Part shown: one piece after another, positions 859-15,629 of the stretch
Numbering within the stretch: position 1 is the first letter of the stretch
Layout: each line of letters begins with the position of its first letter
Source of the DNA: Candidatus Micrarchaeota archaeon
Lineage (GTDB): Archaea; Micrarchaeota; Micrarchaeia; Micrarchaeales; CABMGC01
Length of the DNA stretch: 64,000 nt
Reading direction: 5' to 3'
NCBI GenBank assembly: GCA_021792095.1
Contig: JAJYVH010000001.1
Location: forward strand, 509,324-573,323
The notes under the pieces: generated by a model
Database searches by the model: none
Seen by the model: the letters and a program-made list of their open reading frames with translations, nothing else
What the model was told of the DNA's origin: nothing
Program-made: the position numbers and the translations under genes

Positions 859-2376
859 GTGCGCTACAACACGGGCGTCGCCGCAGTGCTGCTCCTTGCA
901 AGCATAGTGCTGCTCCTGTCGACTTCGCTGTACATAACGCCGCTCACTGTAAGCGACACGAACCCGGCGAGCTACGTGATAGTGCCGCTGCTGATGCTGC
1001 CCGTGTTCCTGTTCTTCTCGCTCAAGCACAGGCCCGTGCCCGCGCTAGATATGCGGAGCGTGGCGCTCGGCGCAGCCGCGCTGTCCGCCTTCGTGCTCGC
1101 GGCAATAGCCCTTAGGCTGTACTTCTCCTTCCTCTTCGTGTCCTTCAGGATAGACATGCTGCTCATGCCCCTGGCGCTCGTGGGCCTCGTCTCCCTGTTC
1201 TTCGGAGTCGCCAATATCCAGAAGTTCAAGTGGGCGATAGTGTACTCGCTGCTTGCCTCACCTGCCGTGCTCTACGCGCTGATATCGCAGTCCGGCGCCT
1301 TCGCGCAGGCCAATTCGTTCGCTGTCTACGCGCTTCTGAAGCCGCTCGTGCACGGGCTGGGCTATTCCGCGCCCATGACCCTGGTCGCCAACGGCTACAG
1401 CATAGGCATAGGCCAGAGCTGCGTGAGCCTAGGCATATTCGTCTCCCTAGTCCTTTTCCTGATTCCTGTGGCCTATTTCTACGATGGCAGGCTTTCGAGG
1501 AGGGTTCTCTGGCTCGGCTCAGGGCTCGCGCTGCTTCTGGTCCTGAACCTCGCAAGGATGGCCTCTATATCGCTGCTGTGGTTCAGCTACGGGCCTAGCT
1601 CCACGCTCCTGCTGGTCCACCAGTTCGTAGGCACGCTTCTCTTCTACGCCATAATACTGGTGATGGTGCTGACCGCGTTCCTTTTCGGCTTGCGCCTGCC
1701 CGCGCCGTCCAGGGCGAGGCGCGCCAAGCCAAAGTACATGCCCTGGATCCTGGCCGCCTCTGCGGTACTGGCGTTCGCCATCTCTGCCTTCTATGTTTAC
1801 GCCACCCTGAACTATGCCACTGCCCTTTCGATAATGCCCACGAGCGCAGCCAATGCGGTGCCGTTTAACTTCAACAACGCATCGATATCCGCTGCCGTCA
1901 GGGCGACCGTCAACTCCTCCGCCTACCTCACCGCCTTCATAGCGAACCAGAACGGGACCGAGGCGATAGCTGCGTTCACTAACTCCAGCATGAACGCCTC
2001 CAACGCGATACTGGCGCTCTTCGGGGAGCCGAGCGGCAACGTTGTCGCTGGCCTGGCGAGCAACAACAGGCTAGTGGGCCAGATGCGCTTCTTCGGCACC
2101 ACCGGGCTGCAGCAGCAGACGTTCGAGCTCGTATCCAACAGCACGGACTACCTTGTGTACAACATAAACCTGCCGCTGCTGCTCCCGAACGCGTCCAGCA
2201 CTGTGACCGGCGTGTACGTGGTGATACCCGCCAGCGACATGCCCGCAAGCGTCACGTGCAGCAGCTATGACGCATTCTACTCCTACCTGTACAACCTGCC
2301 TCTGCCCGAGAACTACAGCAACGCGACGAGGCAGCGCCTCATAGCAGCAGAGTGCATGGGCAACAGGCTGGTGTAG
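859..2376 (+). CDS. Archaeosortase/exosortase-family membrane protein with a long sequon-rich C-terminal extension
   Basis: The N-terminal half is multi-TM with Cys..Arg..His motifs in family-like spacing (GQSCVSLG, LNLARM, VHQFVG). The C-terminal ~200 aa is rich in N-x-S/T. GTG start. Confidence 0.5.
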   Translation: MRYNTGVAAVLLLASIVLLLSTSLYITPLTVSDTNPASYVIVPLLMLPVFLFFSLKHRPVPALDMRSVALGAAALSAFVLAAIALRLYFSFLFVSFRIDMLLMPLALVGLVSLFFGVANIQKFKWAIVYSLLASPAVLYALISQSGAFAQANSFAVYALLKPLVHGLGYSAPMTLVANGYSIGIGQSCVSLGIFVSLVLFLIPVAYFYDGRLSRRVLWLGSGLALLLVLNLARMASISLLWFSYGPSSTLLLVHQFVGTLLFYAIILVMVLTAFLFGLRLPAPSRARRAKPKYMPWILAASAVLAFAISAFYVYATLNYATALSIMPTSAANAVPFNFNNASISAAVRATVNSSAYLTAFIANQNGTEAIAAFTNSSMNASNAILALFGEPSGNVVAGLASNNRLVGQMRFFGTTGLQQQTFELVSNSTDYLVYNINLPLLLPNASSTVTGVYVVIPASDMPASVTCSSYDAFYSYLYNLPLPENYSNATRQRLIAAECMGNRLV

Positions 2377-2438
2377 CCGCGCGTCTCCGCTGCTGCGCGC
2401 AAAAGTAATAAAGCAGGTGCAAGCATTGTTAGAGTGGA

Positions 2439-2527
2439 GGGCCTGTAGCTTAGCCTGGTTGGAGCGCTCGACTGATAGCCTAACGGCAGACATCGAGAGG
2501 CCGGGAGTTCAAATCTCCCCGGGCCCA
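2439..2527 (+). tRNA. tRNA-Ile (anticodon GAU) with a ~14-nt intron at the canonical 37/38 position
   Basis: Acceptor GGGCCTG pairs with CGGGCCC and the T arm is GGGAG-TTCAAAT-CTCCC. The anticodon stem CTCGA/TCGAG is separated by 21 nt (CTGATA + 14 nt + A). No CCA is encoded. Confidence 0.75.
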
Positions 2528-2536
2528 TCCTGCTGC

Positions 2537-3100
2537 TTACAGCAGGAACAGCGCAAACCTGACCGCCGCGGTTATTACTATCGCAGCTATCCATGTAAGC
2601 ACTACTCCTCCGAACGCGCGCCAAACGCCTATCCTGTGTTGCCTGCCGAGCGAGACTATGAAGACGGCCAGGCTCCACAGCGCTATCACTATCAGGAGGA
2701 GGTCGACGAAGGGTATGAACGCGATCCAGAAGAACAGGAGCATGGGCATCATGCCGTAGGTGACGGCAGTGAACGTCCTCTCGTACGTCCCTTTCCAGAT
2801 ACCGAACACGAACTTGGCGAAGAGCTGGTAGATAAGGGCGTCAACTAGCATGCCTATGGGCACTGCCACAAGCAGGAACAGCGCGCCGAGCACGGCCGCG
2901 ATGAGACCTGCCACGGCTCCGGCTGCTGCGCCGAACGGGATGCCGATGCCGCCAGGTACAGCGCCGAGCAGGCTGCCCGCGAAGTAGCCGACGAAGAAGC
3001 CCACTATTATGGTCAGTATCACTGGCAGTAGGCTTGCCCTGTAGTAGAAGCCAAGCGCCTTTCCCACGCTTAGCGTGGCCTTGGCCCTGCCAGGCTGCAT
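2537..3100 (-). CDS. Yip1-like polytopic membrane protein
   Basis: Gly/Ala-rich TM helices in a Yip1/DUF1282-like layout. The ATG at 3100 was chosen because the longer ORF (to 3445) would overlap the divergent gene 3206..3619. A non-ATG start slightly upstream is possible. Confidence 0.5.
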   Translation of the reverse strand: MQPGRAKATLSVGKALGFYYRASLLPVILTIIVGFFVGYFAGSLLGAVPGGIGIPFGAAAGAVAGLIAAVLGALFLLVAVPIGMLVDALIYQLFAKFVFGIWKGTYERTFTAVTYGMMPMLLFFWIAFIPFVDLLLIVIALWSLAVFIVSLGRQHRIGVWRAFGGVVLTWIAAIVITAAVRFALFLL

Positions 3101-3205
3101 TATAAGTTCAAACGCTTTCTTCGTGTCCCTGAACGTGCATTCACCTGTATTATTGTGCCCTGCGGTGCTTTTAATTGTTGCAGGCGCATCAGATGCGGTG
3201 CGCGC

Positions 3206-3619
3206 ATGCGTTTCATGTGCTGGCATGTTGACTATTTCAGGGCCCGGCCCTCTGACTCCGGAAGGTCTGCCGTGGTGGAGGAGGGGAGGCCCCTGGACGT
3301 AGGGGAGGCGTTGCTCGTGTTCGCCAGCTTCGAGAAGCAGGATGAGAGCGACAGTGCGCGCATAGTGGGCAAGGCGGCCGAGGAGATAGCTGGCATAGCC
3401 TCGCAGCTCAAGGTGCGCTCTATAGTGCTGAACCCGTTCGCGCATCTGTTCGGGGATCTCGCGAGCCCTAAGGCGGCGAGCGGCATGCTCGGCGAGCTAC
3501 AGGCGAAGCTCGCAGCGATGGGCTTCGAGGTCAACAGGCTCGCCTTCGGGATATTCTACGAGATAGAGCTCAAGGCGAAGGGTCACAGGCTGGCTAGGAT
3601 ATCGCGCATCATCTCCTGA
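3206..3619 (+). CDS. Stand-alone threonyl-tRNA synthetase editing-domain protein (archaeal tRNA-Thr-ED / DTD-like fold)
   Basis: MRFMCWHVDYF...LLVFASFEKQDE...LKVRSIVLNPFAHLFGDLASP...FGIFYEIELKAKGHRLARISR is collinear with the N-terminal editing domain of archaeal ThrRS. The start was set at the internal ATG 3206. Confidence 0.7.
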   Translation: MRFMCWHVDYFRARPSDSGRSAVVEEGRPLDVGEALLVFASFEKQDESDSARIVGKAAEEIAGIASQLKVRSIVLNPFAHLFGDLASPKAASGMLGELQAKLAAMGFEVNRLAFGIFYEIELKAKGHRLARISRIIS

Positions 3620-3685
3620 GCCGCAGGTTCCTTTTTTCCAACTAAAACCTAATATGCCTTGGGTTGGAAGTAGCGTATCGGTTGC

Positions 3686-4234
3686 ATGGATGATGTACGG
3701 CACCCGTTGGGCTCTCCCGACAAGGATGGCGCAGTAGGCGGTGCCACTGCAAACAAAGCGGCGGACACAGGCAGAATCGGATCCGCGCCGTCGGAGAATG
3801 CATTTTCCGATGTCAAAAGGGCAGATGGTCAACCAAAATCACTGAGCCCTGCTGCCAAACTCGATCGTTTCGAGGGAGAAGACCTGAGGTTGCATATCCT
3901 CTGGACGTTCAAGGACGAGTACCTTTTCGAGAATGTGGTCGACGGCCTCTGGAAACTAGTTAAAAACATAGAGCCTCTTTTAGCTCAGGGCAAAGAAAGC
4001 GAGCTCCTTTCCGAGCTTAAAGCATCGCTTGAAAGAATAATGCTGACCCGCCAGTACGAGGCGCCGAAAATGAGGACGTTTCACGACATATGGTGGTCGC
4101 TGCACACAGAAATTGTATCGCAGGTCTACGCCGCCGAAGAGGAAAGGGAGAGCCATAGGAGGCAGTGGGACGCGACTGTCGAGGCGTGGGTGCCAAGAAG
4201 GAGCAGTATCGTAAGGGCCCTTCTCCAAGAATGA
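3686..4234 (+). CDS. Hypothetical protein
   Basis: 182-aa ORF at the edge of the AT-richer patch. No motif recognised and the start is uncertain. Confidence 0.35.
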   Translation: MDDVRHPLGSPDKDGAVGGATANKAADTGRIGSAPSENAFSDVKRADGQPKSLSPAAKLDRFEGEDLRLHILWTFKDEYLFENVVDGLWKLVKNIEPLLAQGKESELLSELKASLERIMLTRQYEAPKMRTFHDIWWSLHTEIVSQVYAAEEERESHRRQWDATVEAWVPRRSSIVRALLQE

Positions 4235-4317
4235 GGGGAAGGTTTTTGCCGACTTTGTATCGCCCTCTCTGCGGCGCGCATACCCGGTGCGCCCTGTTGC
4301 CAAATGGACTGGTTCGG

Positions 4318-4692
4318 CTATATTAATTCAGAATTTTCGACATCTTCGAAATCAGAATCCTTTGTAAGTATTTTAAGCCCGTAGGACAAGCCAGTGGCTA
4401 ATATGAAGGAGTCTAGCATGCCCCATTTCTTGTTCCTCTGTTTTCTATTAAAGTTAAGTTTTCCGGCAAGCGCAGAAAGGTCTCTATCCATGTTTATCAC
4501 AATGCTCAGTTTTTCTATTATTCCGAGCAGTAGCTTAGGGTCTCTTTTCTCCTTGAGCGCCCAGTTTGCCGCTTCGGCGATCGAAACAATGCAGGTATAA
4601 CAGGGCTCTTTTCTCAGTACTTCCCTCACCCTGCGTCCCCTGGCGTTCCCTATGAAAAATTCCACCCACGCTGATGTGTCTAGCAGCACCAA
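4318..4692 (-). CDS. vapC: PIN-domain toxin VapC
   Basis: VLLDTSAWVEFF at the N-terminus and ILTKDSDFEDV near the C-terminus give the PIN acidic residues. TTG start. It lies 5 nt downstream of its antitoxin. Confidence 0.85.
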   Translation of the reverse strand: MVLLDTSAWVEFFIGNARGRRVREVLRKEPCYTCIVSIAEAANWALKEKRDPKLLLGIIEKLSIVINMDRDLSALAGKLNFNRKQRNKKWGMLDSFILATGLSYGLKILTKDSDFEDVENSELI

Positions 4693-4697
4693 ATCAG

Positions 4698-4910
4698 CTA
4701 CACCCTGTCGGCGTTAACCCTTCTGAAACCCGCAGCGCCCTTAGCTATCCCAAAACTGTTCTCTATAAGGTCTAGCCGTTTCCTTTTAAGCACAGCTATC
4801 TCTATTTCTTCTCCGTTTCTGATTTTTTCGCTAGCAAGCAGGCGTTTGGGAATTAAAACCCCTAGAGAAGTCCCGATTTTCCTGACTTTGGTCTCGAACA
4901 GCTGTTCCAT
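4698..4910 (-). CDS. vapB: AbrB/SpoVT-type antitoxin VapB
   Basis: 70 aa with the swapped-hairpin motif KVRKIGTSLGVLIPKRLL...GEEIEI. It sits immediately upstream of VapC. Confidence 0.8.
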   Translation of the reverse strand: MEQLFETKVRKIGTSLGVLIPKRLLASEKIRNGEEIEIAVLKRKRLDLIENSFGIAKGAAGFRRVNADRV

Positions 4911-5118
4911 CGCATCACATTATAATATGTTATAATAACTATTTAACTCTTTCCTTGTACCTAAATGATAGTAAGGCCCAGGAGGCTGTTAGCGGGGGCT
5001 GAGGAGGCGTTCTCAAACTGTAGCAATCGTCATACTGTGTATTAATCTGCTTGATTTTAGTATAACAGCGTGGGCGTTTTTGGCGCTTTTCCATGCTTCC
5101 CACAGGTGTTTAGCAAGG

Positions 5119-5126
5119 TTTAAAAG
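5119..5126 (+). promoter_or_regulatory. TATA box (TTTAAAAG) of small-ORF paralog 1
   Basis: GGTTTAAAAGG lies 41 nt upstream of ATG 5160, inside the ~88-nt cassette conserved in all four paralogs. Confidence 0.5.
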
Positions 5127-5159
5127 GCTAACCGGCGAGGTATGGCCAGGTAGTGGAGA

Positions 5160-5339
5160 ATGGGAAGCAAGATAGGTAGCTTCGGTAGGCTGTATGCGAG
5201 CAAAGACAAGGCTGTCTTCGTCTCCAGCCCCAACGATTGCCCTAAAGTGGTCATTTCCGAGTCCAGCGGCAGGCTCAAGGACGACTTCTCCAAGGGCTTC
5301 AGGGCGAGGAAGGCGCTGCTGAAGGCCACTCTTGGCTGA
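5160..5339 (+). CDS. Small protein, 59 aa, subtype B of a 4-member paralog family (unrecognised family)
   Basis: MGSKIGSFGRLYASKDKAVFVSSPNDCPKVVISESSGRLKDDFSKGFRARKALLKATLG. It is below the ORF-track cut-off. It shares frame, promoter and ends with 13197..13376. Confidence 0.65.
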   Translation: MGSKIGSFGRLYASKDKAVFVSSPNDCPKVVISESSGRLKDDFSKGFRARKALLKATLG

Positions 5340-5439
5340 TACGTAACCAGACATAGACAGAACAGATAAATTTGTATTGGCAACTTACACCTAACGTAAC
5401 ACCGTACGTCTGAATAATAGGTGTGGTGTTAAGGATCGT

Positions 5440-5835
5440 CTACCATAAGAATTTATCAATGCTCTTGAGTATCTTAACTTGTTTTCGACCTGCATCACTG
5501 GGTCTTATCGCCATGTGGTACGATATGGTTCCATCCGAATCTACTATCTGCTCTAGCATCCCTTTTATTCTGATTACTTCTGTATCGAAAAATGTAACAC
5601 CACAAATTGGGTCGCCATATATTGTTGTGTGCATCGGTGCGCTTCTCACATCTTCTGGTATTTGGGTTTGAGTACTATTTCCGAACGATTTAGTTGCTTT
5701 GATCTCTCTGACTTTAACTTGTATGGTTGCTGGGTCATAATACAGTGATTTGCTATCGATTACTTCGCCTGTTAGTATGGCGTTTCCGAGCGGGATTATG
5801 TTTTTTACATTTTTGAGGTAGGAAAGAGGTCGCAT
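5440..5835 (-). CDS. Hypothetical protein; the frame stays open 55 codons upstream, back to the Nudix stop codon
   Basis: 131 aa from the first ATG. The upstream 5836..6000 has no in-frame stop and no ATG/GTG/TTG. AT-rich. Confidence 0.4.
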   Translation of the reverse strand: MRPLSYLKNVKNIIPLGNAILTGEVIDSKSLYYDPATIQVKVREIKATKSFGNSTQTQIPEDVRSAPMHTTIYGDPICGVTFFDTEVIRIKGMLEQIVDSDGTISYHMAIRPSDAGRKQVKILKSIDKFLW

Positions 5836-6000
5836 ATCTATAAACGAAAAACAAATCTTGTTTTTCCTAGCGCAATTCCCATTCTGAATGCGATATCGCG
5901 GGAATACAATCTGCCTATGTGATTTCCAAAACGTCTCGCTGTCTACCTCAAATACTACAGGTGAATCTACTATATGAAGTGTATTGTAAGTATCCCCGGC

Positions 6001-6498
6001 CTATTCTACCTGTGTTTCTTTGATCAGTATTTTGAGGAATTTGTCTATACCTTTTGGCACTATTGGTTGCGTATGGTTGAGTAGATCCTTTATAGGAATC
6101 CATCTGTATTCTACAACACGTCCTGTTTCGTCGGCGTATCTTACTGTGCCATTTTTATATAGCTCTTTTTTGCCAAATGTGCCCGAATAAATGAACAGGA
6201 TTTCATGATACTGCTTGCCTTGTGGATCTTGGAAAATATTTTCCAGGGGTCCCAAAAACCTAAGGTTATTTATGGCGGAGTTTAGTTCTTCTTGCATTTC
6301 TCTCCTAATTGTGGTTTCACTGTACTCTCCGAACTCTATGCGGCCGCCAGGAGGTCGCACTGTGTTCTTTTCCACTTCGTTACTTAGGATCCCGTGAACC
6401 AGCAGCTTATTGCCATTAACTGCTAGAAGAAGCGCCTTTGGAGATATGTTCTTGCGTAATTCTTTTACCTCAACACTAGTTTCAGCCATGGACGACAC
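6001..6498 (-). CDS. Nudix hydrolase
   Basis: Nudix box GGRIEFGEYSETTIRREMQEELN (GX5EX7REUXEEXGU). Confidence 0.85.
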   Translation of the reverse strand: MSSMAETSVEVKELRKNISPKALLLAVNGNKLLVHGILSNEVEKNTVRPPGGRIEFGEYSETTIRREMQEELNSAINNLRFLGPLENIFQDPQGKQYHEILFIYSGTFGKKELYKNGTVRYADETGRVVEYRWIPIKDLLNHTQPIVPKGIDKFLKILIKETQVE

Positions 6499-6684
6499 CT
6501 AAAGTACCACAATACTGTATGCTACATACTTTCAGGCTTTAAAAATACTGCTCAGATTGGTTCTTCCAATTCCATTTTTTTATGCTGTTCGTAAAATAAC
6601 GCCTTTTTCATCCCCTTTCCGTGCTAAAACTATGTTAGAAAAAGGTAACATTTCGACGAGTTATGTATAACCCCTGAAGGCGAA

Positions 6685-6757
6685 CGGGGAGGCCGAGATT
6701 TGAACTCGGGTCTTCAGGACCCAAACCTGAAAGCCTGCCAGGCTAGCCTACCTCCCC
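6685..6757 (-). tRNA. tRNA-Pro (anticodon UGG)
   Basis: The reverse complement is GGGGAGG-TA-GGCT..GGCT-T-TCAGG-TTTGGGT-CCTGA-AGAC-CCGAG-TTCAAAT-CTCGG-CCTCCCC-G, a 73-nt cloverleaf with G37. Confidence 0.8.
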
Positions 6758-6828
6758 TCGCTGCGTTCCGCAGTTACTCCGCACTCATTTATATTAAACT
6801 CATCTGGCAGCCAGCAGCATGCGTGTTT

Positions 6829-7257
6829 CTACTGCTTGAACGGATTCGTTATTCTTATGCCTTCTATCCCAGCAAAGCCCTTCCTGTCCTCCGTTAGTAT
6901 TTCCTTGATCCCGTTCTCCTTCATAGTCTGGGCTATTAGGAGGTCCCAGAAACGTGTGCCGTCTCCATCCGTGTGTTGCAGTGCGCCTTCCACAGTCCTG
7001 TGCGTGTAGTTGACCTTTTGCCACTTAGCCGAGTAGATCAGCGCCTTTATTACCACTGCTACCTCGTTCGCAGGCATGATGTGCTTGCTCACGGCAGCGT
7101 TGAAGAATTCACCCAGCACCTGGTTGGATATGACTCCTGCCATCTCCCCTTCGAACACCTTCCTGACTAGCGGTGCGCATGCCATCTGCTTCTCCGGTTC
7201 GGCAGTGCTGTATGCGTAAAGCAGTATGTTGGTATCGAAGAACCTAGCCTCTTTCAT
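6829..7257 (-). CDS. vapC: PIN-domain toxin VapC
   Basis: MKEARFFDTNILLYAY...LIAQTMKENGIKEILTEDRKGF. The start was set at ATG 7257, overlapping the antitoxin stop by 14 nt. Confidence 0.8.
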   Translation of the reverse strand: MKEARFFDTNILLYAYSTAEPEKQMACAPLVRKVFEGEMAGVISNQVLGEFFNAAVSKHIMPANEVAVVIKALIYSAKWQKVNYTHRTVEGALQHTDGDGTRFWDLLIAQTMKENGIKEILTEDRKGFAGIEGIRITNPFKQ

Positions 7258-7498
7258 GCAATTCGTCCCTGTTGAATTTCCACTTTCTCTTTGCATTTAT
7301 TCCTTTTTCGAGGAGCAGGAGCGCCTGCGTTTCCAAGTCCGCGCTGTTTTGCCTGGTCCACGTCCTCATCGCTTCTGTCACAGCCTTGCCCAGGTATCCC
7401 TTTCTTCGGCCGAATTTCCTGCCTGCCTCTTCCCTGAATTCGTGTTCCGTCTCCTCCTCTACGTTTACTGTGATCGTCTTCGACATTTCCTCATTCAT
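7244..7498 (-). CDS. vapB: Ribbon-helix-helix (CopG-like) antitoxin VapB
   Basis: KTITVNVEEETEHEFREEA...GYLGKAVTEAMRTW is a typical archaeal RHH antitoxin, directly upstream of the PIN gene. Confidence 0.7.
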   Translation of the reverse strand: MNEEMSKTITVNVEEETEHEFREEAGRKFGRRKGYLGKAVTEAMRTWTRQNSADLETQALLLLEKGINAKRKWKFNRDELHERG

Positions 7499-7530
7499 AT
7501 TTACATCTTTTACATATTTAAATATTTGCT

Positions 7531-9714
7531 TTATGTAAATACAACTCTATTCGTTTCGCCTCCTGTAACGTCAAACTCGCGGTTGTCCCTCCTCTTCTCG
7601 CCCAAAACAACGAGCCTGTACCTGTTCCCGTTTATCGTTCCCTTAATCTCGGCGTTGCCGTTCTCATCTGTAGCGCCGTGGTAAAACAGTTCGCCGGCAT
7701 AGTATAGCCTGAGCCTCTGCCCCTGCTTCGCCTTCCCTTCTTTATCAACCACTTTAACCGTCATCTCGCCCTTGCCATACTCTTCGTTGTCCTCTTCCCT
7801 TGGTGCCAGTCCCTGGCCGCGTTCAGGCCCGCGCTCCGGTATCCTGACGAACACAGAACCGGCGTGGCCGCGCTCGCCCCTCGCGTCGGTGATGTAGTCT
7901 AGCGCGCAGACGCGCTGCTGCAGCCGTTTGAGCTTCTCGATGAGCGCATCCTTGTCCTCCTCACCGAAGGCGAGATCGTTGGCGGCGAGCTTCGCTATGT
8001 CCGCGCTCTGCCTGAAGTAGAGCTTGGTCTGGAGCATGCGCCTCACCTCCTGCGCTATGTCTGTGGGGCTGTGCGTCAGGAGCACGAGGCCAACGCCTCT
8101 CTTCCTGAAGTCCTGTATCCTTTGCAGCAGGTCCATCGTCGCCGCCGAGCCGTACCTTGCCTCGAACACGAGCTGCGCCTCCTCTATGCACACCAGCATG
8201 CGCAGCTCCCCGTCGCCGTCTGTGCCCAGCTCTTCGGCTATGCTGTACACCTGGTTGAGTATGAGCGCGTAGAGGAAAGGGCGCATCTTGCTGCTCACCC
8301 TTGACAGGTCGAAGACGGCTCCCTTGTCCAGCAGTTCCCTCATGTCAACTCCCTGCCTCTTCGAGAACTCGGGCCTGTTGAGCATGGTCCTGAGGTTTGC
8401 GAGGGCCGACCTGACATTCTCCCCGTGCTTTGTGTACACTGTTCCGGCCCCCGTCTTCTTCCCGTGCTGCTCCAGCACAGCGTCCTCTATGCAGTCGTAT
8501 ACGTCGAGCGGGTCCGGGTCCCTGAGGCGCTCGTAGGCCTTTCGGAACGCAGGCAGGAGGCACTTCTCCAGCGAAGAGGTGTACGGCCCGGCTTCTGAGG
8601 CCGACGCGAGCAGCATGGCCAGGCTCTCGTAGAAGCTCTCTATGCCTATGGCGCTGTCGCACTTGAAGAAGTTGAAATGCGTGCGGCTGCTGTACAGCGT
8701 CACCACCTCCATCCCGCTCTGCCTGCCGAACGCGTCCCATTCGTCCGTTGGCGATATTATCGCGATTCCGACTCTCCCCCTTCGCGACACCTGGCCCGCT
8801 ATGTGCATCGCCGCAACGCTCTTCCCGGTGCCCGGCACGCCCGTGATGAGCGTGCCCAGATTCAGTGTGCTGGCGTCCGCGCCCACGACCTCGCCAGTGG
8901 CGGCCGCTGCCGCGTCCATGTAGTTGCCAAACGTCACCTCGCCGTTCTCCGGCGCCTGCGAGCGTATTGTTATGTTGCTCCTTACTGTGTTGGGTACGCA
9001 GAACAGGCGCGCGCACTGGGTGCTGTCGCAGGGGAACGCGTCGAGTCTAGCTGCCTGCGCCCAGAGGCGTTCCAGGCTGCCCGCCTGCACGCGCCCAGTG
9101 TCCAGCACCAGCAGCCTTGACTTCAGGTAAGCGAGCGGCGTTTCCTGCTCGCCGAGCACGAACAGCACGGCCTTGTAAGCGGTGCCGCTCGTCAGCGACA
9201 CGTTCTTCATGGCGGCCAGTGCGGACAGCAGCACGTCCTTCTCGGCAGAGCCGTGGTAGCTGTCCATGTGCCTGGATGCGCTCTCCGAGGAAGCATCGGC
9301 CCTGCTGCTTATGCTTTGCGTCACAGCGGTCTCCTTTCCGCTCAGCATCTCCTCTATGCTCCTCAGCGCCCTCTCCACTTCGCCGTGCGCCATGGGCACG
9401 AAGGAAGCTATGACGCAGGCGCCAGTGTCTCCGAGCATGCCGTATATTGCGTCAAGCCTGTTCATTTCGCCCACCGGCACCGCCACTACGCGGAGCGCCT
9501 CCCAGCCGTACCCGCATTCGAGCTGTGCCTCCTCCAGCTCAAGGCCGGGCAGCGCAGCCCGGGGCCGCGCTGCGTCCTGCTCCGTTATCAGGAAAAGCTC
9601 CCTGCCCGGGAGGCTGTGGCAGAGCATGAACTGCCTGCCCAGCATCGCCTCCACGAGCCTCTCGTTCTCCATGCCGGCAGGCATCCCCGTTATCCTCTGT
9701 ACGCGTAGCCGCAT
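7531..9714 (-). CDS. HerA/FtsK-like (DUF87) P-loop ATPase with a C-terminal carboxypeptidase-regulatory-like beta-sandwich domain
   Basis: Walker A is GVPGTGKSV and Walker B-like is LRMLVCIEEAQ, followed by LVLLTHSP. The tail MTVKVVDKEGKAKQGQRLRLYY...TDENGNAEI resembles the CarboxypepD_reg fold. The first ~280 aa are unassigned. Confidence 0.6.
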   Translation of the reverse strand: MRLRVQRITGMPAGMENERLVEAMLGRQFMLCHSLPGRELFLITEQDAARPRAALPGLELEEAQLECGYGWEALRVVAVPVGEMNRLDAIYGMLGDTGACVIASFVPMAHGEVERALRSIEEMLSGKETAVTQSISSRADASSESASRHMDSYHGSAEKDVLLSALAAMKNVSLTSGTAYKAVLFVLGEQETPLAYLKSRLLVLDTGRVQAGSLERLWAQAARLDAFPCDSTQCARLFCVPNTVRSNITIRSQAPENGEVTFGNYMDAAAAATGEVVGADASTLNLGTLITGVPGTGKSVAAMHIAGQVSRRGRVGIAIISPTDEWDAFGRQSGMEVVTLYSSRTHFNFFKCDSAIGIESFYESLAMLLASASEAGPYTSSLEKCLLPAFRKAYERLRDPDPLDVYDCIEDAVLEQHGKKTGAGTVYTKHGENVRSALANLRTMLNRPEFSKRQGVDMRELLDKGAVFDLSRVSSKMRPFLYALILNQVYSIAEELGTDGDGELRMLVCIEEAQLVFEARYGSAATMDLLQRIQDFRKRGVGLVLLTHSPTDIAQEVRRMLQTKLYFRQSADIAKLAANDLAFGEEDKDALIEKLKRLQQRVCALDYITDARGERGHAGSVFVRIPERGPERGQGLAPREEDNEEYGKGEMTVKVVDKEGKAKQGQRLRLYYAGELFYHGATDENGNAEIKGTINGNRYRLVVLGEKRRDNREFDVTGGETNRVVFT

Positions 9715-10488: not shown

Positions 10489-11121
10489 TTGCCGGTGCTG
10501 CCTATGGACTTCTATTCACCTGCGGATGGCGCCAAGCTCGTCAGGGCTGCGCGCAACGCAATAGAGCTCTACATAGGCTCCAGGGAGTTCAGGAATGAGG
10601 CGGTGGAGCGCACCATACCTGGCTTCACGCAGAAGCACGGCGTGTTCGTCACACTGTACCACTACCCCACCATGTCGCTCAGGGGCTGCATAGGCTTCTC
10701 GGAGCCGATAGGCGAGCTGAAAGGCATGCTAGTTGAGGCCGCGGTCGCAGCTGCAGCCGATGACCCCAGGTTCGTCCCTGTCTCGCACCTGGAGCTTGAG
10801 CACCTGCTGGTAGAGGTAAGCGTGCTGTCCGCGCCAGAGCGGCTCAAGGGAAGCCCGGAAGCGATCAGGAAGCAGGTAAGGATAGGCCGCGACGGCCTGA
10901 TAATAGAGTACGGCTACAACAAGGGGCTGCTGCTGCCCATAGTGGCGGTGGAGGAGCGATGGAGCGTGCCGAAGTTCCTCGGCGAGGTGTGCATTAAGGC
11001 CGGCCTGCCAGAGCACGCGTGGCGCTCTAGCGGCGCGCAGCTGTACAGGTTCTCCACGCAGGTGTTCAGGGAGCGCGAGCCGCGTGGCAGGGCTGAGGAA
11101 GTAAGGCTAGAGACACCATGA
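10489..11121 (+). CDS. AMMECR1-domain protein
   Basis: SLRGCIGFSEP signature, ~210 aa. Its stop overlaps the dinB start (ATGA). Confidence 0.8.
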   Translation: MPVLPMDFYSPADGAKLVRAARNAIELYIGSREFRNEAVERTIPGFTQKHGVFVTLYHYPTMSLRGCIGFSEPIGELKGMLVEAAVAAAADDPRFVPVSHLELEHLLVEVSVLSAPERLKGSPEAIRKQVRIGRDGLIIEYGYNKGLLLPIVAVEERWSVPKFLGEVCIKAGLPEHAWRSSGAQLYRFSTQVFREREPRGRAEEVRLETP

Positions 11122-12197
11122 GACTAATACTGCTAGTAGACATGGACTATTTCTTCGTTGCCTGCGAGGAGCTGCGCAGGCCCGATATAAAGGGCAAGCC
11201 TGCTGTGGTGGGCTCCGACCCCAGGCCGACCGGCGGGCGCGGGGTGGTGATGACTGCCAACTACCCGGCCAGGAAGTTCGGGCTCAGGAGCGGCATGCCG
11301 CTCTCATTGGCGTACCGCATAAAGAAGGACACGATCTACATGCCGGAGGACTTCGAGTACTACGAGCAGGTGTCGAGGAAGGTGATGGACCTGATAAAGA
11401 AGTACGCCGACAGGTTCGAGCAGGTGAGCATAGACGAGGCCTTCGCCGACGTCTCGGTTAGGGCGAAGAGCTACGAGGACGCGCTTGCGCTGGCGGCCAG
11501 GCTGAAGAAGGAGATGAAGGAGGAGCTGGGGCTGCCGTGCTCAATAGGCGTTAGCACCAACAAGCTCGTGGCCAAGATGGCTAGCGAGGACGCCAAGCCC
11601 AACGGGATCAAGCTCGTCAAGGAGGCTGACGCCAAGGAGTTCCTTTCCGGGAAGCGGGTGGGCGACCTCTACGGCGTAGGGAAGAAGATGGGCAAGGTGC
11701 TGGAGGGCTTCGGCTACAAGACAATAGGCGACCTGGCGAAGGCCAACCCTGTTGTGCTGGTAGAGAGGTTCAAGTCATACGGCGCAGAGCTCCACAACTC
11801 CGCCAACGGCATAGACGAGAGCGAGGTGCAGGAGAACTGGGAGGTCAAGTCGATAGGCAGGGAGAGGACCTTTGCCAGGGACACGAGCGACAGGGAGGAG
11901 GTGGCCAGGCTGTTCGGCGGCATGTCAAAGGAGGTGGGAGAGGAGCTGGGGAAGCAGGGCCTGGCGTTCAAGGTGGTGACCATCAAGCTCCGCTACGCCG
12001 ACTTCGAGGAAGTGCTGAAGAGCAGGAGCCTGACGCACAGGTCCGTGGACCCCGAGGAGATATCGCGGGTGGCGATTCAGCTGTTCGACAGGTACGCGGA
12101 GCGCGGCGAGGAGCTGAGGAAGATAGGCGTGAGGGTGTCCAACCTGGTCAAGTACAGGGGCCAGAAGAGCATGAAGGAATACGCGGCAGGCGGCTAG
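11118..12197 (+). CDS. dinB: Y-family DNA polymerase IV (Dbh/Dpo4-like)
   Basis: LLVDMDYFFVACEE, SIDEAFADVS and the little-finger region; 359 aa. Confidence 0.9.
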   Translation: MRLILLVDMDYFFVACEELRRPDIKGKPAVVGSDPRPTGGRGVVMTANYPARKFGLRSGMPLSLAYRIKKDTIYMPEDFEYYEQVSRKVMDLIKKYADRFEQVSIDEAFADVSVRAKSYEDALALAARLKKEMKEELGLPCSIGVSTNKLVAKMASEDAKPNGIKLVKEADAKEFLSGKRVGDLYGVGKKMGKVLEGFGYKTIGDLAKANPVVLVERFKSYGAELHNSANGIDESEVQENWEVKSIGRERTFARDTSDREEVARLFGGMSKEVGEELGKQGLAFKVVTIKLRYADFEEVLKSRSLTHRSVDPEEISRVAIQLFDRYAERGEELRKIGVRVSNLVKYRGQKSMKEYAAGG

Positions 12198-12461
12198 GCA
12201 GCGCCTAAGGTGGCATTTGGCCTGTAGATATCCTTTATTTTCATTCCATTGTGTGCTTGTTGAGCTCGCTTTCTGCAGAATCTATTTCTCCGGCAGCAAT
12301 GACCGGCATTTCGTCGACGGACGGCTCCGGGCTCCCCTCTATGAAGTTCATTGTTTAGCTCTCCGCAGACCGCTGGCCTCGTAGGCTCGGCCGGCTTGCG
12401 TGGCTCGCTCCATGGGCATTTTTTGGCGCTTTTCCATGCTTCCCACAGGCGTTTCGCAAGG

Positions 12462-12469
12462 TTTAAAAG
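12462..12469 (+). promoter_or_regulatory. TATA box (TTTAAAAG) of small-ORF paralog 2
   Basis: Same cassette position as the other copies, 41 nt upstream of ATG 12503. Confidence 0.5.
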
Positions 12470-12502
12470 GCTAACCGGCGATGTATGACCAGGTAGTGGA
12501 GA

Positions 12503-12673
12503 ATGGCAAAGCTAGTCAGACTGTACCAGAGCAAGAGCACGACTGTGCTAGTGTTCAGCGGCAACAGCTGCCCCAGAATAAAGCTCAGCAGCGAATCTGC
12601 CGTGTTCAGGGACGACTTCTCCGATGGCTTCAGGCTGAGCAAACAGCTCGCAAAAACGGTAGGCAGCACCTAA
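12503..12673 (+). CDS. Small protein, 56 aa, subtype A of the paralog family
   Basis: MAKLVRLYQSKSTTVLVFSGNSCPRIKLSSESAVFRDDFSDGFRLSKQLAKTVGST, preceded by GGAG. It is below the track cut-off and nucleotide-identical to 12850..13020. Confidence 0.65.
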   Translation: MAKLVRLYQSKSTTVLVFSGNSCPRIKLSSESAVFRDDFSDGFRLSKQLAKTVGST

Positions 12674-12808
12674 GAAACACTGATTTGCTCTTCTGCTTTC
12701 CTTATTCTAGCGCCACTTATATCCGGCTTAGGCTCGGTCGGCTTGCGTGGCTCGCTCCATTGGCATTTTTTGGCGCTTTTCCATGCTTCACACAGGCGTT
12801 TCGCAAGG

Positions 12809-12816
12809 TTTAAAAG
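12809..12816 (+). promoter_or_regulatory. TATA box (TTTAAAAG) of small-ORF paralog 3
   Basis: Same cassette position, 41 nt upstream of ATG 12850. Confidence 0.5.
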
Positions 12817-12849
12817 GCTAACCAGCGATGTATGGCCAGGTAGTGGAGA

Positions 12850-13020
12850 ATGGCAAAGCTAGTCAGACTGTACCAGAGCAAGAGCACGACTGTGCTAGTG
12901 TTCAGCGGCAACAGCTGCCCCAGAATAAAGCTCAGCAGCGAATCTGCCGTGTTCAGGGACGACTTCTCCGATGGCTTCAGGCTGAGCAAACAGCTCGCAA
13001 AAACGGTAGGCAGCACCTAA
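12850..13020 (+). CDS. Small protein, 56 aa, subtype A (identical duplicate)
   Basis: Nucleotide-identical to 12503..12673, exactly one 347-bp period downstream. Confidence 0.65.
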   Translation: MAKLVRLYQSKSTTVLVFSGNSCPRIKLSSESAVFRDDFSDGFRLSKQLAKTVGST

Positions 13021-13155
13021 GAAACACTGATTTGCTCTTCTGCTTTCCTTATTCTAGCGCCACTTATATCCGGCTTAGGCTCGGTCGGCTTGCGTGGCTC
13101 GCTCCATTGGCATTTTTTGGCGCTTTTCCATGCTTCACACAGGCGTTTCGCAAGG

Positions 13156-13163
13156 TTTAAAAG
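13156..13163 (+). promoter_or_regulatory. TATA box (TTTAAAAG) of small-ORF paralog 4
   Basis: Same cassette position, 41 nt upstream of ATG 13197. Confidence 0.5.
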
Positions 13164-13196
13164 GCTAACCAGCGATGTATGGCCAGGTAGTGGAGA

Positions 13197-13376
13197 ATGG
13201 GAAGCAAGATAGGTAGCTTCGGTAGGCTGTATGCGAGCAGGAGTACTGTAGTCTTTGTGTCAAGCCCTAAGGACTGCCCCAAGGTACTCCTTGCGAGGTC
13301 TGCCGGCAGGCTCAAGGACGACTTCTCCAAGGGCTTCAGGGCGAGGAAGGCGCTGCTGAAGGCCACTCTTGGCTGA
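13197..13376 (+). CDS. Small protein, 59 aa, subtype B
   Basis: MGSKIGSFGRLYASRSTVVFVSSPKDCPKVLLARSAGRLKDDFSKGFRARKALLKATLG. The 5' 42 nt and 3' ~75 nt are identical to 5160..5339, and the centre differs with many synonymous changes. Confidence 0.65.
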   Translation: MGSKIGSFGRLYASRSTVVFVSSPKDCPKVLLARSAGRLKDDFSKGFRARKALLKATLG

Positions 13377-13389
13377 TACGCAGCTCGGC

Positions 13390-14790
13390 TTAGATGGGTC
13401 CAGCTTCTGAATTAGCAAGCACTCTAGCGCCCCGTATGTCCAATCGCGGCTCAGCAGCTTTCTTCCTTCCAGTGCTTTCGTAGTCTATCCTCTCTGTTTT
13501 GTCCCTGCCGTACTGGCTCTCTAGTATCTTCTGCTGCACCGAGTGCGCGTTGTCGAATCGCCTGTAGCAGAAGTTGCCCACCAGCATGTTAGAGGCCACG
13601 AGGGTGCTGAGCTTGACCCCCATGTCCAGCGCAGTGAGCTCCTCTACCGCCTTGTCCAGCTCGTCGTACTCGAACACCGGCATGAATATGACCGAGCCGT
13701 CCGGCGATATCGTGTCGTAGACGCAGAGGTACCTGTTCGTCTGCGTTCCGTTGTCCCAGATTATGTTGGATAGGGATTCGTGCCTCTTTGCCGAGAACTT
13801 TACCCTGTTTGTTATGCACTTGAATATGACGCCTATGTACCTTATCGGCAGCTTGCGCATCGTGATCGTTGTGCGCTTTATCTTGCCCTCGCTCCTAAGC
13901 GTGTGGTATGTGTAGCTGGCCCTGCCTGCGTCGAAGCCGTACTTCTCGTCTATCTTGGAGAACTCTACGCTCGCGTCGTCGTTGAGCTCTCTCAGCACCG
14001 CGTACTCCCTGGCCCTGACGCCGCCTTCCTCCTTCAGCAGATCTATGAACTCACTCCTGAAAGGCACGAATCCGTAGTCCTCGTATACTGGTGTGACACT
14101 CCACACTGAGTCGTAAGTGCCAAGCCTATTCCTCAAATTCACAATCAGCAGGTTCGCTTCCTCCACATTCTTCACGAGCACGTGCAGGATCACGTCGTAC
14201 TCGCCCTTGGCAAGCATCGCCAGCTGTACTCTGGGCTCCAGGAGCATTGCGCTCCTCAGCTCTTCCGTTGGCGGAATCCCATTGATGAATTTCACTGTAA
14301 CAAGGAGCTGCATGTAGCCGAACTTGCCGGCGTCTATCTCAGGCACATACCTTATCCCGTACTTCCTCTCGAGGCTCTTCTTCTGCCAGGCGGTAGCGTT
14401 GACGCTCAAGCCCGTCATCCTCGCGAGCGCAGGCAGCGATATCCTGCCGTTCATGCTCAGCGCAGTGAGCAGCGTCTTCTCGTGCCTGTTGCTGCGCTCC
14501 CCCTGAGCGCTGCCGCTTCCTGCGTCTCCAAAGTTAGGCGCACTCCTCACGCCTTCGAGCTCCACCTGCACCGGGCTGGGCCATTGCGTGCTCCTCTTGG
14601 CCACGAACTCGCCCTCGTCAGTTATCTTGCCCTGGTACGTGCTTATCTTCCTCTTCCTGCCTGTGGCCGCGTCCTTCCTTACGTACGAGAGGTAGACGTA
14701 GTAGTGCCTGTCTATCCTCTTAAGCTCGCAGGCGCTGTTCTTCGCCTTCAGCTCGCTGAAGGCCTGCAGTACCCTATCCCCGACCTCCAC
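13390..14790 (-). CDS. Transcriptional regulator with two tandem Lrp/AsnC-like (HTH + RAM) modules and an extra N-terminal domain
   Basis: Module 1 is LLTALSMNGRISLPALARMTGLSVNATAWQKKSLE...YMQLLVTVKF...YDVILHVLV. Module 2 is REYAVLRELNDDASVEFSKIDEKYG...YIGVIFKC...GSVIFMPVF. The N-terminus reads RHYYVYLSYVRKD..GRKRKISTYQGKI. Confidence 0.6.
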   Translation of the reverse strand: MEVGDRVLQAFSELKAKNSACELKRIDRHYYVYLSYVRKDAATGRKRKISTYQGKITDEGEFVAKRSTQWPSPVQVELEGVRSAPNFGDAGSGSAQGERSNRHEKTLLTALSMNGRISLPALARMTGLSVNATAWQKKSLERKYGIRYVPEIDAGKFGYMQLLVTVKFINGIPPTEELRSAMLLEPRVQLAMLAKGEYDVILHVLVKNVEEANLLIVNLRNRLGTYDSVWSVTPVYEDYGFVPFRSEFIDLLKEEGGVRAREYAVLRELNDDASVEFSKIDEKYGFDAGRASYTYHTLRSEGKIKRTTITMRKLPIRYIGVIFKCITNRVKFSAKRHESLSNIIWDNGTQTNRYLCVYDTISPDGSVIFMPVFEYDELDKAVEELTALDMGVKLSTLVASNMLVGNFCYRRFDNAHSVQQKILESQYGRDKTERIDYESTGRKKAAEPRLDIRGARVLANSEAGPI

Positions 14791-15335
14791 ATGCTCCCCA
14801 CAGTATATTGTGGCTCCCCGCCTATTTAAACATTCGTGAGAGATTTCCCTAGCCTTCCCTAAGCAGCTTCCGGCCAGGCGCGTTTTTGGTAAGTATTCTG
14901 ATTTTATCCTGGGCCAGACCGGCGGTTTACCACGACGAACCTATGGATTCCTGGCTCGCCAATAAGTACAGGAAAGGGCATAACACTACTCAAAGGTTGG
15001 GGGCTGCGATGGAGAACGCGTTGGGAAATACTGTTTCTGTACTTACCCACTACCCACTTCCCGCACGCCCCTCTGCCGCCCCCGCCTTCCGCTTCGCGTT
15101 GCTTGGGCAGGCGCGTGGCAGTCCGGAGGGGCACTCGTGTTCCTTCGGCCCCACCCACCACGCGCGCTCTCATGCTTGGATGAGACCATGAGGATAGGGA
15201 TTTTTGATATAAGACTGGCGAGGAAGGCGGCTGCTGAGACGAAACGCGGCGATGACGGCAGCAGGCCGGTCAAGTTCGTGCCCGACGGCTACAACTCGTG
15301 GCGCGTAGTTTGGGCCGATTGAGCCAAGTGGTCAT

Positions 15336-15629
15336 TTGAAGGGCAAATGTGTACGTGTGGGCGCTACAAGGGAGTGCTTCCTGCTGCTAAATCCAAGCAT
15401 GAGCAAAAGCTCGCACGAAGTGGCGAAGGCAATAGCTGTGTGCGAGGGCGTAAGGAAGGTATTCCTGACCAGCGGGGATTTCGGGTTTGTAGTTTCGGCT
15501 TCTATCCATGATGAACGTTCCGCGAAAGAAATGCAGCTAATGGCGAAAAGAATCGAAGGTGTAGCAAGGGCCAAGATTGTCGTAGGGCATTTTGTCTACG
15601 CGCAGAGAAGCGGAACGGCCGCCCCATAG
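15336..15629 (+). CDS. Stand-alone Lrp/AsnC ligand-binding (RAM) domain protein
   Basis: 97 aa. CFLLLNPSMSKSSHEVAKAIAVCEGVRKVFLTSGDFGFVVSA matches the RAM-domain beta-alpha-beta pattern. TTG start. Confidence 0.5.
   Translation: MKGKCVRVGATRECFLLLNPSMSKSSHEVAKAIAVCEGVRKVFLTSGDFGFVVSASIHDERSAKEMQLMAKRIEGVARAKIVVGHFVYAQRSGTAAP

Follow-up and report, generated by a model that had tools for sequence, protein, structure and literature searches.

A tandem array of small-protein genes beside a tandem Lrp/AsnC gene

The DNA analyzed here (the window) is a 64,000-nucleotide stretch of contig JAJYVH010000001.1 from the Candidatus Micrarchaeota archaeon assembly GCA_021792095.1 (positions 509,324 to 573,323, forward strand). 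Within the window, an array of short genes encoding proteins of 56 to 59 residues leads up to the 3′ end of a convergent gene for a 466-residue protein with two Lrp/AsnC-type (feast/famine regulatory protein, FFRP) modules, and a further copy of the small gene lies apart from the array. We describe the small-protein family encoded by these genes and its association with the FFRP. The principal features, with window coordinates, are as follows.

12382..13200, + strand: tandem 347-bp repeat, two full units and the promoter part of a third (Tandem Repeats Finder, TRF; repeat search)
12503..12673, + strand: small-protein gene A1, subtype A, 56 residues (open reading frame, ORF; family hidden Markov model, HMM, E = 1.2e-21)
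12850..13020, + strand: small-protein gene A2, 56 residues (ORF; nucleotide-identical to A1)
13197..13376, + strand: small-protein gene B1, subtype B, 59 residues (ORF; HMM E = 9.5e-21)
5160..5339, + strand: dispersed small-protein gene B2, 59 residues (ORF; own copy of the promoter element)
13390..14790, − strand: 466-residue tandem Lrp/AsnC (FFRP) protein (Pfam HTH_24, HTH_AsnC, and AsnC_trans_reg; AlphaFold2, AF2; Foldseek; PDB profile)

TRF detected a 347-bp period at 12382-13200 (2.4 copies, 98% identity), with units 1 and 2 differing at 5 of 347 positions. The original prediction, made from the sequence alone, described three head-to-tail 347-bp units; two full units carrying nucleotide-identical 56-residue ORFs are indeed present, whereas the third is a partial repeat that shares only its 121-nt upstream part, exactly as in unit 2, before a diverged coding sequence. 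A fourth copy had also been placed at 5160..5339, and the ORF found there encodes a paralog with 83% amino acid identity to B1. A competing 110-residue frame, said to be stopped in the B copies, is shut after 13 codons in both B units. The array originated by tandem duplication of the 347-bp unit. Public collections contain the exact A1 protein (P0004) and proteins identical to B1 (P0001) and B2 (P0002). Three other assemblies of the same species carry an A-B rather than an A-A-B arrangement; this reflects either strain variation or the collapse of the extra A copy in those three assemblies. Across the orthologous loci described below (designated by L numbers), copy number is one in many, two in L010 and L026, and at least three in L015, as compared to four in the window.

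The small ORFs encode a protein family under purifying selection

A protein search with a single sequence recovered only this genome's own copies, and a genome scan with narrow back-translated patterns yielded one fragment from a Candidatus Micrarchaeia metagenome-assembled genome (MAG), located beside a 468-residue homolog of the 466-residue protein of the window. The family was reached by way of the regulator, 52 homolog clusters of which led to 21 metagenomic loci; six-frame translations of these loci were then searched with a small-protein HMM. In most loci having downstream DNA, homologous small ORFs lay just beyond the 3′ end of the large gene, in convergent orientation. A 13-sequence profile retrieved 70 clusters of proteins of 53 to 67 residues, all named "hypothetical protein," nearly all from Micrarchaeota-labelled MAGs, and none with a Pfam domain. 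Top matches of a 4-sequence profile included giant repeat proteins (P0124, 6911 residues; P0125; P0132; P0134; P0139; P0146; and P0150), which were rejected as spurious; these proteins are S/T/V-rich or built of short-motif repeats and are unmatched by the 67-sequence profile. The genes had been described as unannotated. They were missed by the 60-residue ORF track, and at least one ortholog, in L034 (3942-4160, − strand; HMM E = 1.7e-13; 26 nt from the regulator stop), is uncalled in its public annotation, but public gene calls (NCBI/ENA) do list the proteins as hypothetical.

Orthologs in genomes of very different base composition, AT-rich ones included, retain the protein rather than the DNA sequence. 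Ratios of nonsynonymous to synonymous substitution (dN/dS; Nei-Gojobori, NG86) were 0.04 for L015a/L026a, 0.11 for L026a/L026b, 0.13 for L015a/L015b, 0.17 for L010a/L010b, and 0.25 for B1/B2. Over 120 pairs, the ratio of the corresponding proportions of differing sites (pN/pS) had a median of 0.42 and a maximum of 0.73. The reading frame is intact in every ortholog except possibly L010a. These data agree with the protein-level constraint originally proposed: dN/dS is well below 1 across paralogs and orthologs, a Shine-Dalgarno (SD)-like motif is conserved, and the orthologous frames are free of the stops and frameshifts that a noncoding RNA element would be expected to accumulate. Rfam 15 revealed no RNA family at E ≤ 1 in 12200-13420, and at gathering thresholds only tRNAs were found in the window. 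Judged by sequence comparison, this is a real protein-coding family under purifying selection, a conclusion in which, jointly with that on the two-gene module below, we place very high confidence.

The regulator-proximal copy in L010 (1507-1692, − strand) has no in-frame ATG, GTG, or TTG upstream of the conserved region. This copy may be decaying or using an unusual start codon.

The small gene and the FFRP gene form a conserved convergent pair

A convergent pair of small gene and FFRP gene was found in 16 distinct lineages, with stop codons 0 to 26 nt apart or overlapping. In the window the two stops are 13 nt apart; the arrangement recurs in L004, L005, L009, L010, L011, L014, L015, L017, and L022, as well as in L026 (7 nt between stops) and L029 (0 nt). 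The most divergent small proteins (L031–L033) also retain the pair, their partner being a short form of 357 to 393 residues that lacks the N-terminal domain (N-domain); in these loci the 3′ ends either overlap, by 24 or 4 nt, or are separated by 26 nt. L034 likewise has the pair, with its small ORF uncalled. Small proteins and the regulators encoded beside them show correlated pairwise identities (Mantel r = 0.65, p = 1e-4). The linkage is specific to one orthologous group, because more distant tandem-FFRP genes in L018, L019, L020, and L035 have no small gene beside them. L035 is a paralog in the genome of L034, so that only one of the two tandem-FFRP paralogs of that genome carries the small gene; a GNAT acetyltransferase gene follows the tandem FFRP in L035 and L018.

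The original prediction had raised the possible recurrence of this neighborhood. Linkage to the tandem-Lrp gene does recur, in the 16 lineages above, while VapBC does not, apart from an unrelated PIN gene in L031. That prediction further spoke of a co-regulated family next to a dedicated-looking regulator; regulation of the small genes by this neighbor would be a reading of the linkage. As far as sequences can tell, the two genes constitute a vertically co-inherited module, with the very high confidence stated above.

In L018, the tandem-FFRP homolog (1199-2614, + strand) is split by an in-frame stop into two segments, 1199-1897 and 1901-2614; pseudogenization, a sequencing error, or recoding may explain the split.

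The partner contains two fused Lrp/AsnC modules

The 466-residue protein comprises an N-domain (residues 1–64; a helix plus β-structure), a disordered linker, a winged helix-turn-helix (wHTH) plus RAM module (94–240), and a second wHTH plus RAM module (246–404), and its AF2 model has a mean predicted local distance difference test score (pLDDT) of 85.9. The first module matches PH1519/FL11 (E = 3.7e-14) and also LrpA in a PDB profile search, and the second aligns to the first in hhalign (E = 0.006). The window protein falls just below Pfam cutoffs, while orthologs exceed them for HTH_AsnC and HTH_24. Two wHTH plus RAM modules are thus indicated jointly by Pfam matches of orthologs, the AF2 model, Foldseek, hhalign, and the PDB profile search, in agreement with the original description of a tandem-Lrp neighbor.

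The top Foldseek match of the partner is the tandem fusion NirDL (4ch7; E = 3.6e-12, 11% identity, root mean square deviation [rmsd] 11.7 Å), followed by Lrp transcription factors at about 1e-5. The NirDL match probably reflects shared tandem architecture. A NirdL-like_HTH match was weak (17.5 bits versus a cutoff of 27), neither NirDL nor Ahb was among the sequence matches of the PDB profile search, and no tetrapyrrole-pathway context was found. Assignment of the partner as a siroheme decarboxylase (NirDL/AhbAB) was therefore rejected, the match being one of architecture without a sequence match.

The small protein is strongly basic and has a predicted β-plus-helix fold

Members of the family have a median length of 60 residues, a median pI of 10.4, and a median net charge of about +9. 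Cys27 (67 of 67 members), Asp41, and Asp42 are invariant; Pro28 (66 of 67), Arg40, Phe20, Val21, and a C-terminal Phe are nearly so, and 60 of the 67 members contain exactly one cysteine. The consensus sequence of the family reads M-G-S-K-I-x3-G-[RK]-L-Y-x-[SN]-K-G-[RK]-x-V-F-V-[AS]-[ST]-G-x2-3-C-P-[RT]-[IV]-N-x7-9-K-F-R-D-D-[YF]-S-K-G-[FL]-K-x2-K-x2-A-K-x-I-F. AF2 predicted six short β-strands and a C-terminal helix (pLDDT 82.9; predicted template-modeling score, pTM, 0.61) from a shallow alignment of 67 sequences, with the five models spanning pLDDT 54 to 83, and this predicted fold is provisional.

Library searches returned no relative. In Pfam, neither the three window proteins nor any of the 67 members gave a match at threshold, only sub-threshold GRAM, GLUE, and similar hits; the best GRAM (PF02893) score was 13.8 bits against a cutoff of 23.6, with weak matches in 4 of 67 members. 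NCBIfam gave scattered matches at E ≥ 0.019, and PADLOC and PHROGs gave none. Nothing significant was found among PDB sequences, where the best match was Tetrahymena eL6 (E = 0.52; 25 residues including K-F-x-D-D-Y), or by Foldseek against the PDB, where polo-boxes ranked at the top (E 0.3–1, TM 0.6–0.7, identity 10–12%) and no GRAM/PH-like fold matched significantly. Foldseek against BFVD yielded no significant fold, and tblastn against phage and plasmid collections and a scan of IMG/VR were empty. Kinship to the N-domain of the regulator was considered and rejected; hhalign detected no relation, and short-form regulators without this domain are still paired with the small gene. No description of the family was found in the searchable literature. 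The original prediction had likewise failed to recognize these proteins, and by sequence and predicted fold the family and its two-gene module appear to be new and far from described families.

Each small gene carries its own promoter-like element

The signals flanking the small genes are the following.

12420..12502, + strand: conserved upstream element of A1, with BRE-like GCAAGG, TATA-like TTTAAAA (12462-12468), and GGAG at the ATG
12767-12849, 13114-13196, and 5077-5159: other copies of the upstream element
12399..12425, + strand: terminator-like hairpin with a T6 run at the head of unit 1 (consensus scan; near-identical copies 347 and 694 nt downstream)

TTTAAAA lies exactly 41 nt before the ATG of all four genes (12462, 12809, 13156, and 5119), preceded by GCAAGG, a sequence resembling the transcription factor B recognition element (BRE), and the GGAG described in the original prediction adjoins the ATG in all four. 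Blocks of 23 and 27 nt from this region occur only at the four gene sites in the 64-kb window, with 0 occurrences expected by chance. The element varies by 0 to 8 differences over 88 nt, while A and B coding sequences have diverged to a dS of ∼1.1, and ahead of B2 the final ∼88 nt of the upstream region are present. The hairpin at the unit heads is weak and probably ends the preceding transcript, and a pyrimidine/T-rich tract follows the A stop codon. From its sequence, each unit resembles an archaeal gene complete in itself, with a terminator, a BRE/TATA, a short leader bearing an SD-like motif, and the coding sequence. In orthologs, a BRE/TATA-like element, (A/G)AAG(C/G)-TTTTTAAA, lies at about −40 to −55, and the SD-like motif, GGTGA or AGTGA, at −5 to −10. 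In L015 and L026, copies are 12 nt apart with the SD alone kept upstream, indicative of an operon.

A perfect 9-nt inverted repeat (TGCTTCCCA/TGGGAAGCA; 5094-5102 and 5161-5169) is the only one detected in the upstream element and spans the region from promoter to start codon of B2; the B1 version contains one mismatch, and the A copies lack the repeat. Its candidacy as an operator was rejected on account of this imperfection in other copies, and the repeat is probably a chance occurrence.

Gene conversion has homogenized promoters and gene ends

The 27 differences separating B1 from B2 are confined to nucleotides 44 to 107 of 180 (P < 1e-5 under a uniform spread), and the two genes are identical over the first 42 nt, the last ∼73 nt, and 4 nt past the stop. 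The core shows a pS of 0.82 and a pN of 0.26 (pN/pS 0.31), indicative of old divergence between homogenized ends. Similarly, 121 nt upstream are identical between an A unit and the B1 unit despite the A/B coding dS of ∼1.1. By sequence evidence, these are old paralogs whose promoters and termini have been homogenized by gene conversion while their cores stay diverged. The mosaic structure originally proposed for the B copies is accordingly upheld as to the confinement of differences to the core and the identity of the ends; the core, however, is not under selection for variability. Diversifying selection, or a selected hypervariable cassette, was ruled out by the core pN/pS. The family offers a clear archaeal example of gene conversion acting on both the promoter and the termini of multigene-family members.

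B2 lies, together with its promoter, in a stretch of low GC content (window 4001-8000; GC 0.47 versus ∼0.58 elsewhere) that abuts a tRNA gene and may be an integrated or foreign segment. A PIN (VapC) gene is located on one side of B2, and a NUDIX gene and tRNA-Pro on the other (Pfam PIN and NUDIX matches).

4318-4692, − strand: PIN gene
5440-5835, − strand: 131-residue ORF
6001-6498, − strand: NUDIX gene
6685-6757, − strand: tRNA-Pro

Other neighbors of the module and features of the window

Two further small genes lie on the far side of the regulator.

15336..15629, + strand: 97-residue stand-alone RAM-domain (demi-FFRP-like) protein (AsnC_trans_reg E = 1.9e-4, below cutoff; ORF clustering)
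15137..15322, + strand: 61-residue ORF ending ..NSWRVVWAD (by-eye comparison)

The RAM-only gene is divergent from the regulator and is kept beside it in 11 loci. In L026, a 56-residue gene (7274-7444, + strand; ..NSYQIVWAD..) follows the RAM-only gene, and a motif shared with the 61-residue ORF, ..NS[WY]x[VI]VWAD, was noted by eye; this small ORF may be a further member of the module or a conserved micro-protein. Directly upstream of the small gene and co-oriented with it, a gene of ∼192 codons for a PLDc_2/NgoFVII-like PLD-family protein is present in L009, L011, L014, L022, and L029 (for example, L029 4339-4917, + strand). The equivalent position in the window is taken by a DinB-type polymerase gene (11118-12197). 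L026 (GCA_021844905.1) has two tandem small genes (4813-5177, + strand) 156 nt downstream of the 23S rRNA (1806-4657, + strand) on the same strand; rRNA linkage was rejected as a general feature, having been seen in L026 alone among the loci.

Elsewhere in the window, an 89-nt tRNA at 2439-2527 (+ strand) was reported by Rfam (56.9 bits) and not by ARAGORN, and is probably an intron-containing archaeal tRNA. Dense, CCA/ACC-rich tandem repeats of 18, 30, 57, 60, and 114 bp at 57104-57565 presumably represent the low-complexity repeat of a gene for a large, possibly surface, protein.

A proposed function and its alternatives

The explanation we favor as a whole, with a rough probability of 0.6, is a Micrarchaeota-restricted family of basic small proteins that forms a module with a tandem FFRP and acts as effector or partner of that FFRP. 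Its mechanistic part, taken by itself, is tentative. The FFRP would sense a small metabolite via its RAM domains, perhaps together with the RAM-only protein, and would set the dosage of the small protein, which it could do by binding the conserved upstream element. Control could also arise from convergent-transcription (antisense) interference across the shared 3′ ends, which is conceivable because the two stop codons leave no room for a terminator between them. The small protein, as a dedicated effector or partner, would bind either nucleic acid, as suggested by its extreme basicity, or the FFRP itself, and its invariant Cys-Pro and Asp-Asp point to a further, specific site. A bolder and rather unlikely elaboration is a two-protein switch that would be a signature of the Micrarchaeota, in which the small protein binds the FFRP, or a host-derived ligand at Cys-Pro/Asp-Asp, such that a metabolite, heme, or redox signal from host association is passed on to transcription, with dosage tuned by tandem amplification and gene conversion.

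Several observations weigh against the effector or partner explanation. Convergent layout alone does not imply regulation, and the conserved upstream element yielded no operator-like palindrome. The more distant tandem-FFRP genes, including a paralog within the L034 genome, do without a small gene, and the predicted fold of the small protein derives from a shallow alignment with variable models. For a protein that binds nucleic acid purely by electrostatics, the invariant Cys-Pro and Asp-Asp are unusual; they hint at a site for a ligand or for catalysis. Micrarchaeota also encode histones and Alba, so that an extra chromatin protein is not required (PMC6136690).

Among the alternatives, the small protein might be a housekeeping nucleic acid binder, a lineage-specific chromatin protein or RNA chaperone akin to Sul7d, Cren7, or CC1, with dosage provided by multiple strongly promoted copies and only a loose adjacency to the FFRP. 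Its tiny size and very basic character (median 60 residues, pI 10.4, net charge +9), compact predicted β-plus-helix fold, and several gene copies, each with a consensus BRE/TATA, are consistent with such a role, as are the upstream neighbors (DinB in the window, a PLD-type nuclease in five loci, and 23S rRNA in L026). Distribution in one lineage is also typical of archaeal nucleoid proteins. Such lineage restriction is described for the Sulfolobales (PMC11841832). Foldseek, however, gave no SH3-like, Sul7d, or Cren7 match, the Cys-Pro and Asp-Asp would be unexpected in such a protein, the phylum already has histones and Alba (PMC6136690), and the tight, co-diverging pairing with one FFRP paralog would go unexplained; we regard this alternative as unlikely. 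Far less probable is a divergent ribosomal protein, eL6-like or lineage-specific. The basic character, the 25-residue match to Tetrahymena eL6 as best PDB sequence hit, and the L026 genes, which follow the 23S rRNA on its strand after 156 nt, point that way, but the eL6 match is not significant (E = 0.52), the predicted fold differs from the SH3/KOW barrel of eL6, rRNA adjacency occurs in one lineage only, and multiple diverged paralogs linked to a regulator would be atypical.

A ligand-handling protein, engaging a tetrapyrrole such as heme, a metal, or a redox signal via Cys-Pro and working with its tandem Lrp-like partner, would suit organisms that lack heme synthesis and need heme. It would account for a cysteine present in 67 of 67 members, followed by proline in 66 of 67 and single in 60 of 67, the Cys-Pro dipeptide being the core of heme-regulatory motifs, and for NirDL, a siroheme decarboxylase that binds tetrapyrrole, being the partner's best structural match (4ch7, E = 3.6e-12). 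The cultured Micrarchaeon Mia14 has no heme biosynthesis yet encodes cytochrome bd (PMC5498576). This idea is nonetheless improbable: the first module of the partner matches genuine Lrp transcription factors (PH1519/FL11, 3.7e-14) with no NirDL or Ahb by sequence, the NirDL match (11% identity, rmsd 11.7 Å) probably concerns tandem architecture only, and Cys-Pro is followed by R/T and then I/V rather than the usual hydrophobic residue right after Pro. A role as cargo of a mobile, viral, toxin-antitoxin, or defense element is favored by the low-GC stretch of B2 beside a PIN gene and tRNA-Pro, by the variation in copy number among assemblies, and by the PIN gene flanking the regulator in L031. 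The absence of PADLOC and PHROG matches, the empty searches of phage, plasmid, and IMG/VR collections, divergence of the pair in step as for vertically inherited genes, a convergent orientation atypical of toxin-antitoxin operons, and flanking genes that are ordinary chromosomal ones differing between lineages leave it very little likelihood. A noncoding repeat or RNA element with incidental ORFs is effectively refuted. Within the genome the ∼88- to 121-nt upstream part is indeed more conserved in nucleotides than the coding sequence, and each unit has a hairpin with a T-run, but promoter function and gene conversion explain the upstream conservation, amino acids are kept across genomes that diverge in nucleotide sequence and GC content, dN/dS stays far below 1, all orthologs but the possibly start-less L010a have an intact frame, and no Rfam family matches.

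Significance and comparison with known systems

The Micrarchaeota are DPANN symbionts with reduced genomes, and most of their lineage-specific genes lack an explanation. The pair described here is kept over a range from ∼30% to 100% partner identity under strong reductive pressure and is likely to be important to their lifestyle. Annotation transfer is impossible, since the small protein has no recognizable relative by sequence or predicted fold, and it is short enough to escape ORF-length filters and some gene callers, as in L034. Two available Micrarchaeon co-cultures provide a concrete, testable setting. Uncharacterized lineage-specific small proteins are common in DPANN genomes, which tempers interest, and our claim is limited to a new family and a new conserved module, with the mechanism put forward as a proposal.

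Toxin-antitoxin systems differ from the module in the orientation of their genes, since the small gene and the FFRP gene are convergent, and PADLOC gave no match. Polo-boxes (β6α) likewise have six strands followed by a helix (best Foldseek TM 0.69, PLK4 PB3), and the N-terminal hairpin of the small protein, G-x-L-Y-x4-R-x-V-F, resembles that of GRAM domains, as reflected in the 4 of 67 weak matches. Neither resemblance is significant, with Foldseek E values of at least 0.3 and a GRAM score of 13.8 bits against 23.6, and the small size makes convergence on a simple meander likely. Sul7d/Sso7d, Cren7, and CC1 are similarly strongly basic proteins of ∼60 residues that are β-rich, with a helix at the C terminus as in Sul7d, encoded by several gene copies, and confined to one lineage; the family described here shares no sequence or Foldseek similarity with them and is distinguished by its invariant Cys-Pro and Asp-Asp and its obligate linkage to a regulator gene. 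Among solved proteins, NirDL alone has the fused tandem Lrp-like architecture of the partner; it is also the partner's top Foldseek match (4ch7), and differs from it at 11% identity and an rmsd of 11.7 Å, with no sequence match and no tetrapyrrole context found. The closest correspondence is with archaeal FFRPs such as Pyrococcus FL11/PH1519 and DM1. The first module of the partner matches PH1519/FL11 and LrpA by sequence and fold, and a RAM-only gene adjoins the partner gene, as in FFRPs with stand-alone RAM partners; control of a neighboring gene is, moreover, the usual logic of the Lrp/AsnC family. In contrast to these FFRPs, the Micrarchaeota protein has two fused wHTH plus RAM modules, with an extra N-domain in most members, and its neighbor is an orphan 60-residue protein encoded in convergent, rather than divergent or co-oriented, arrangement.

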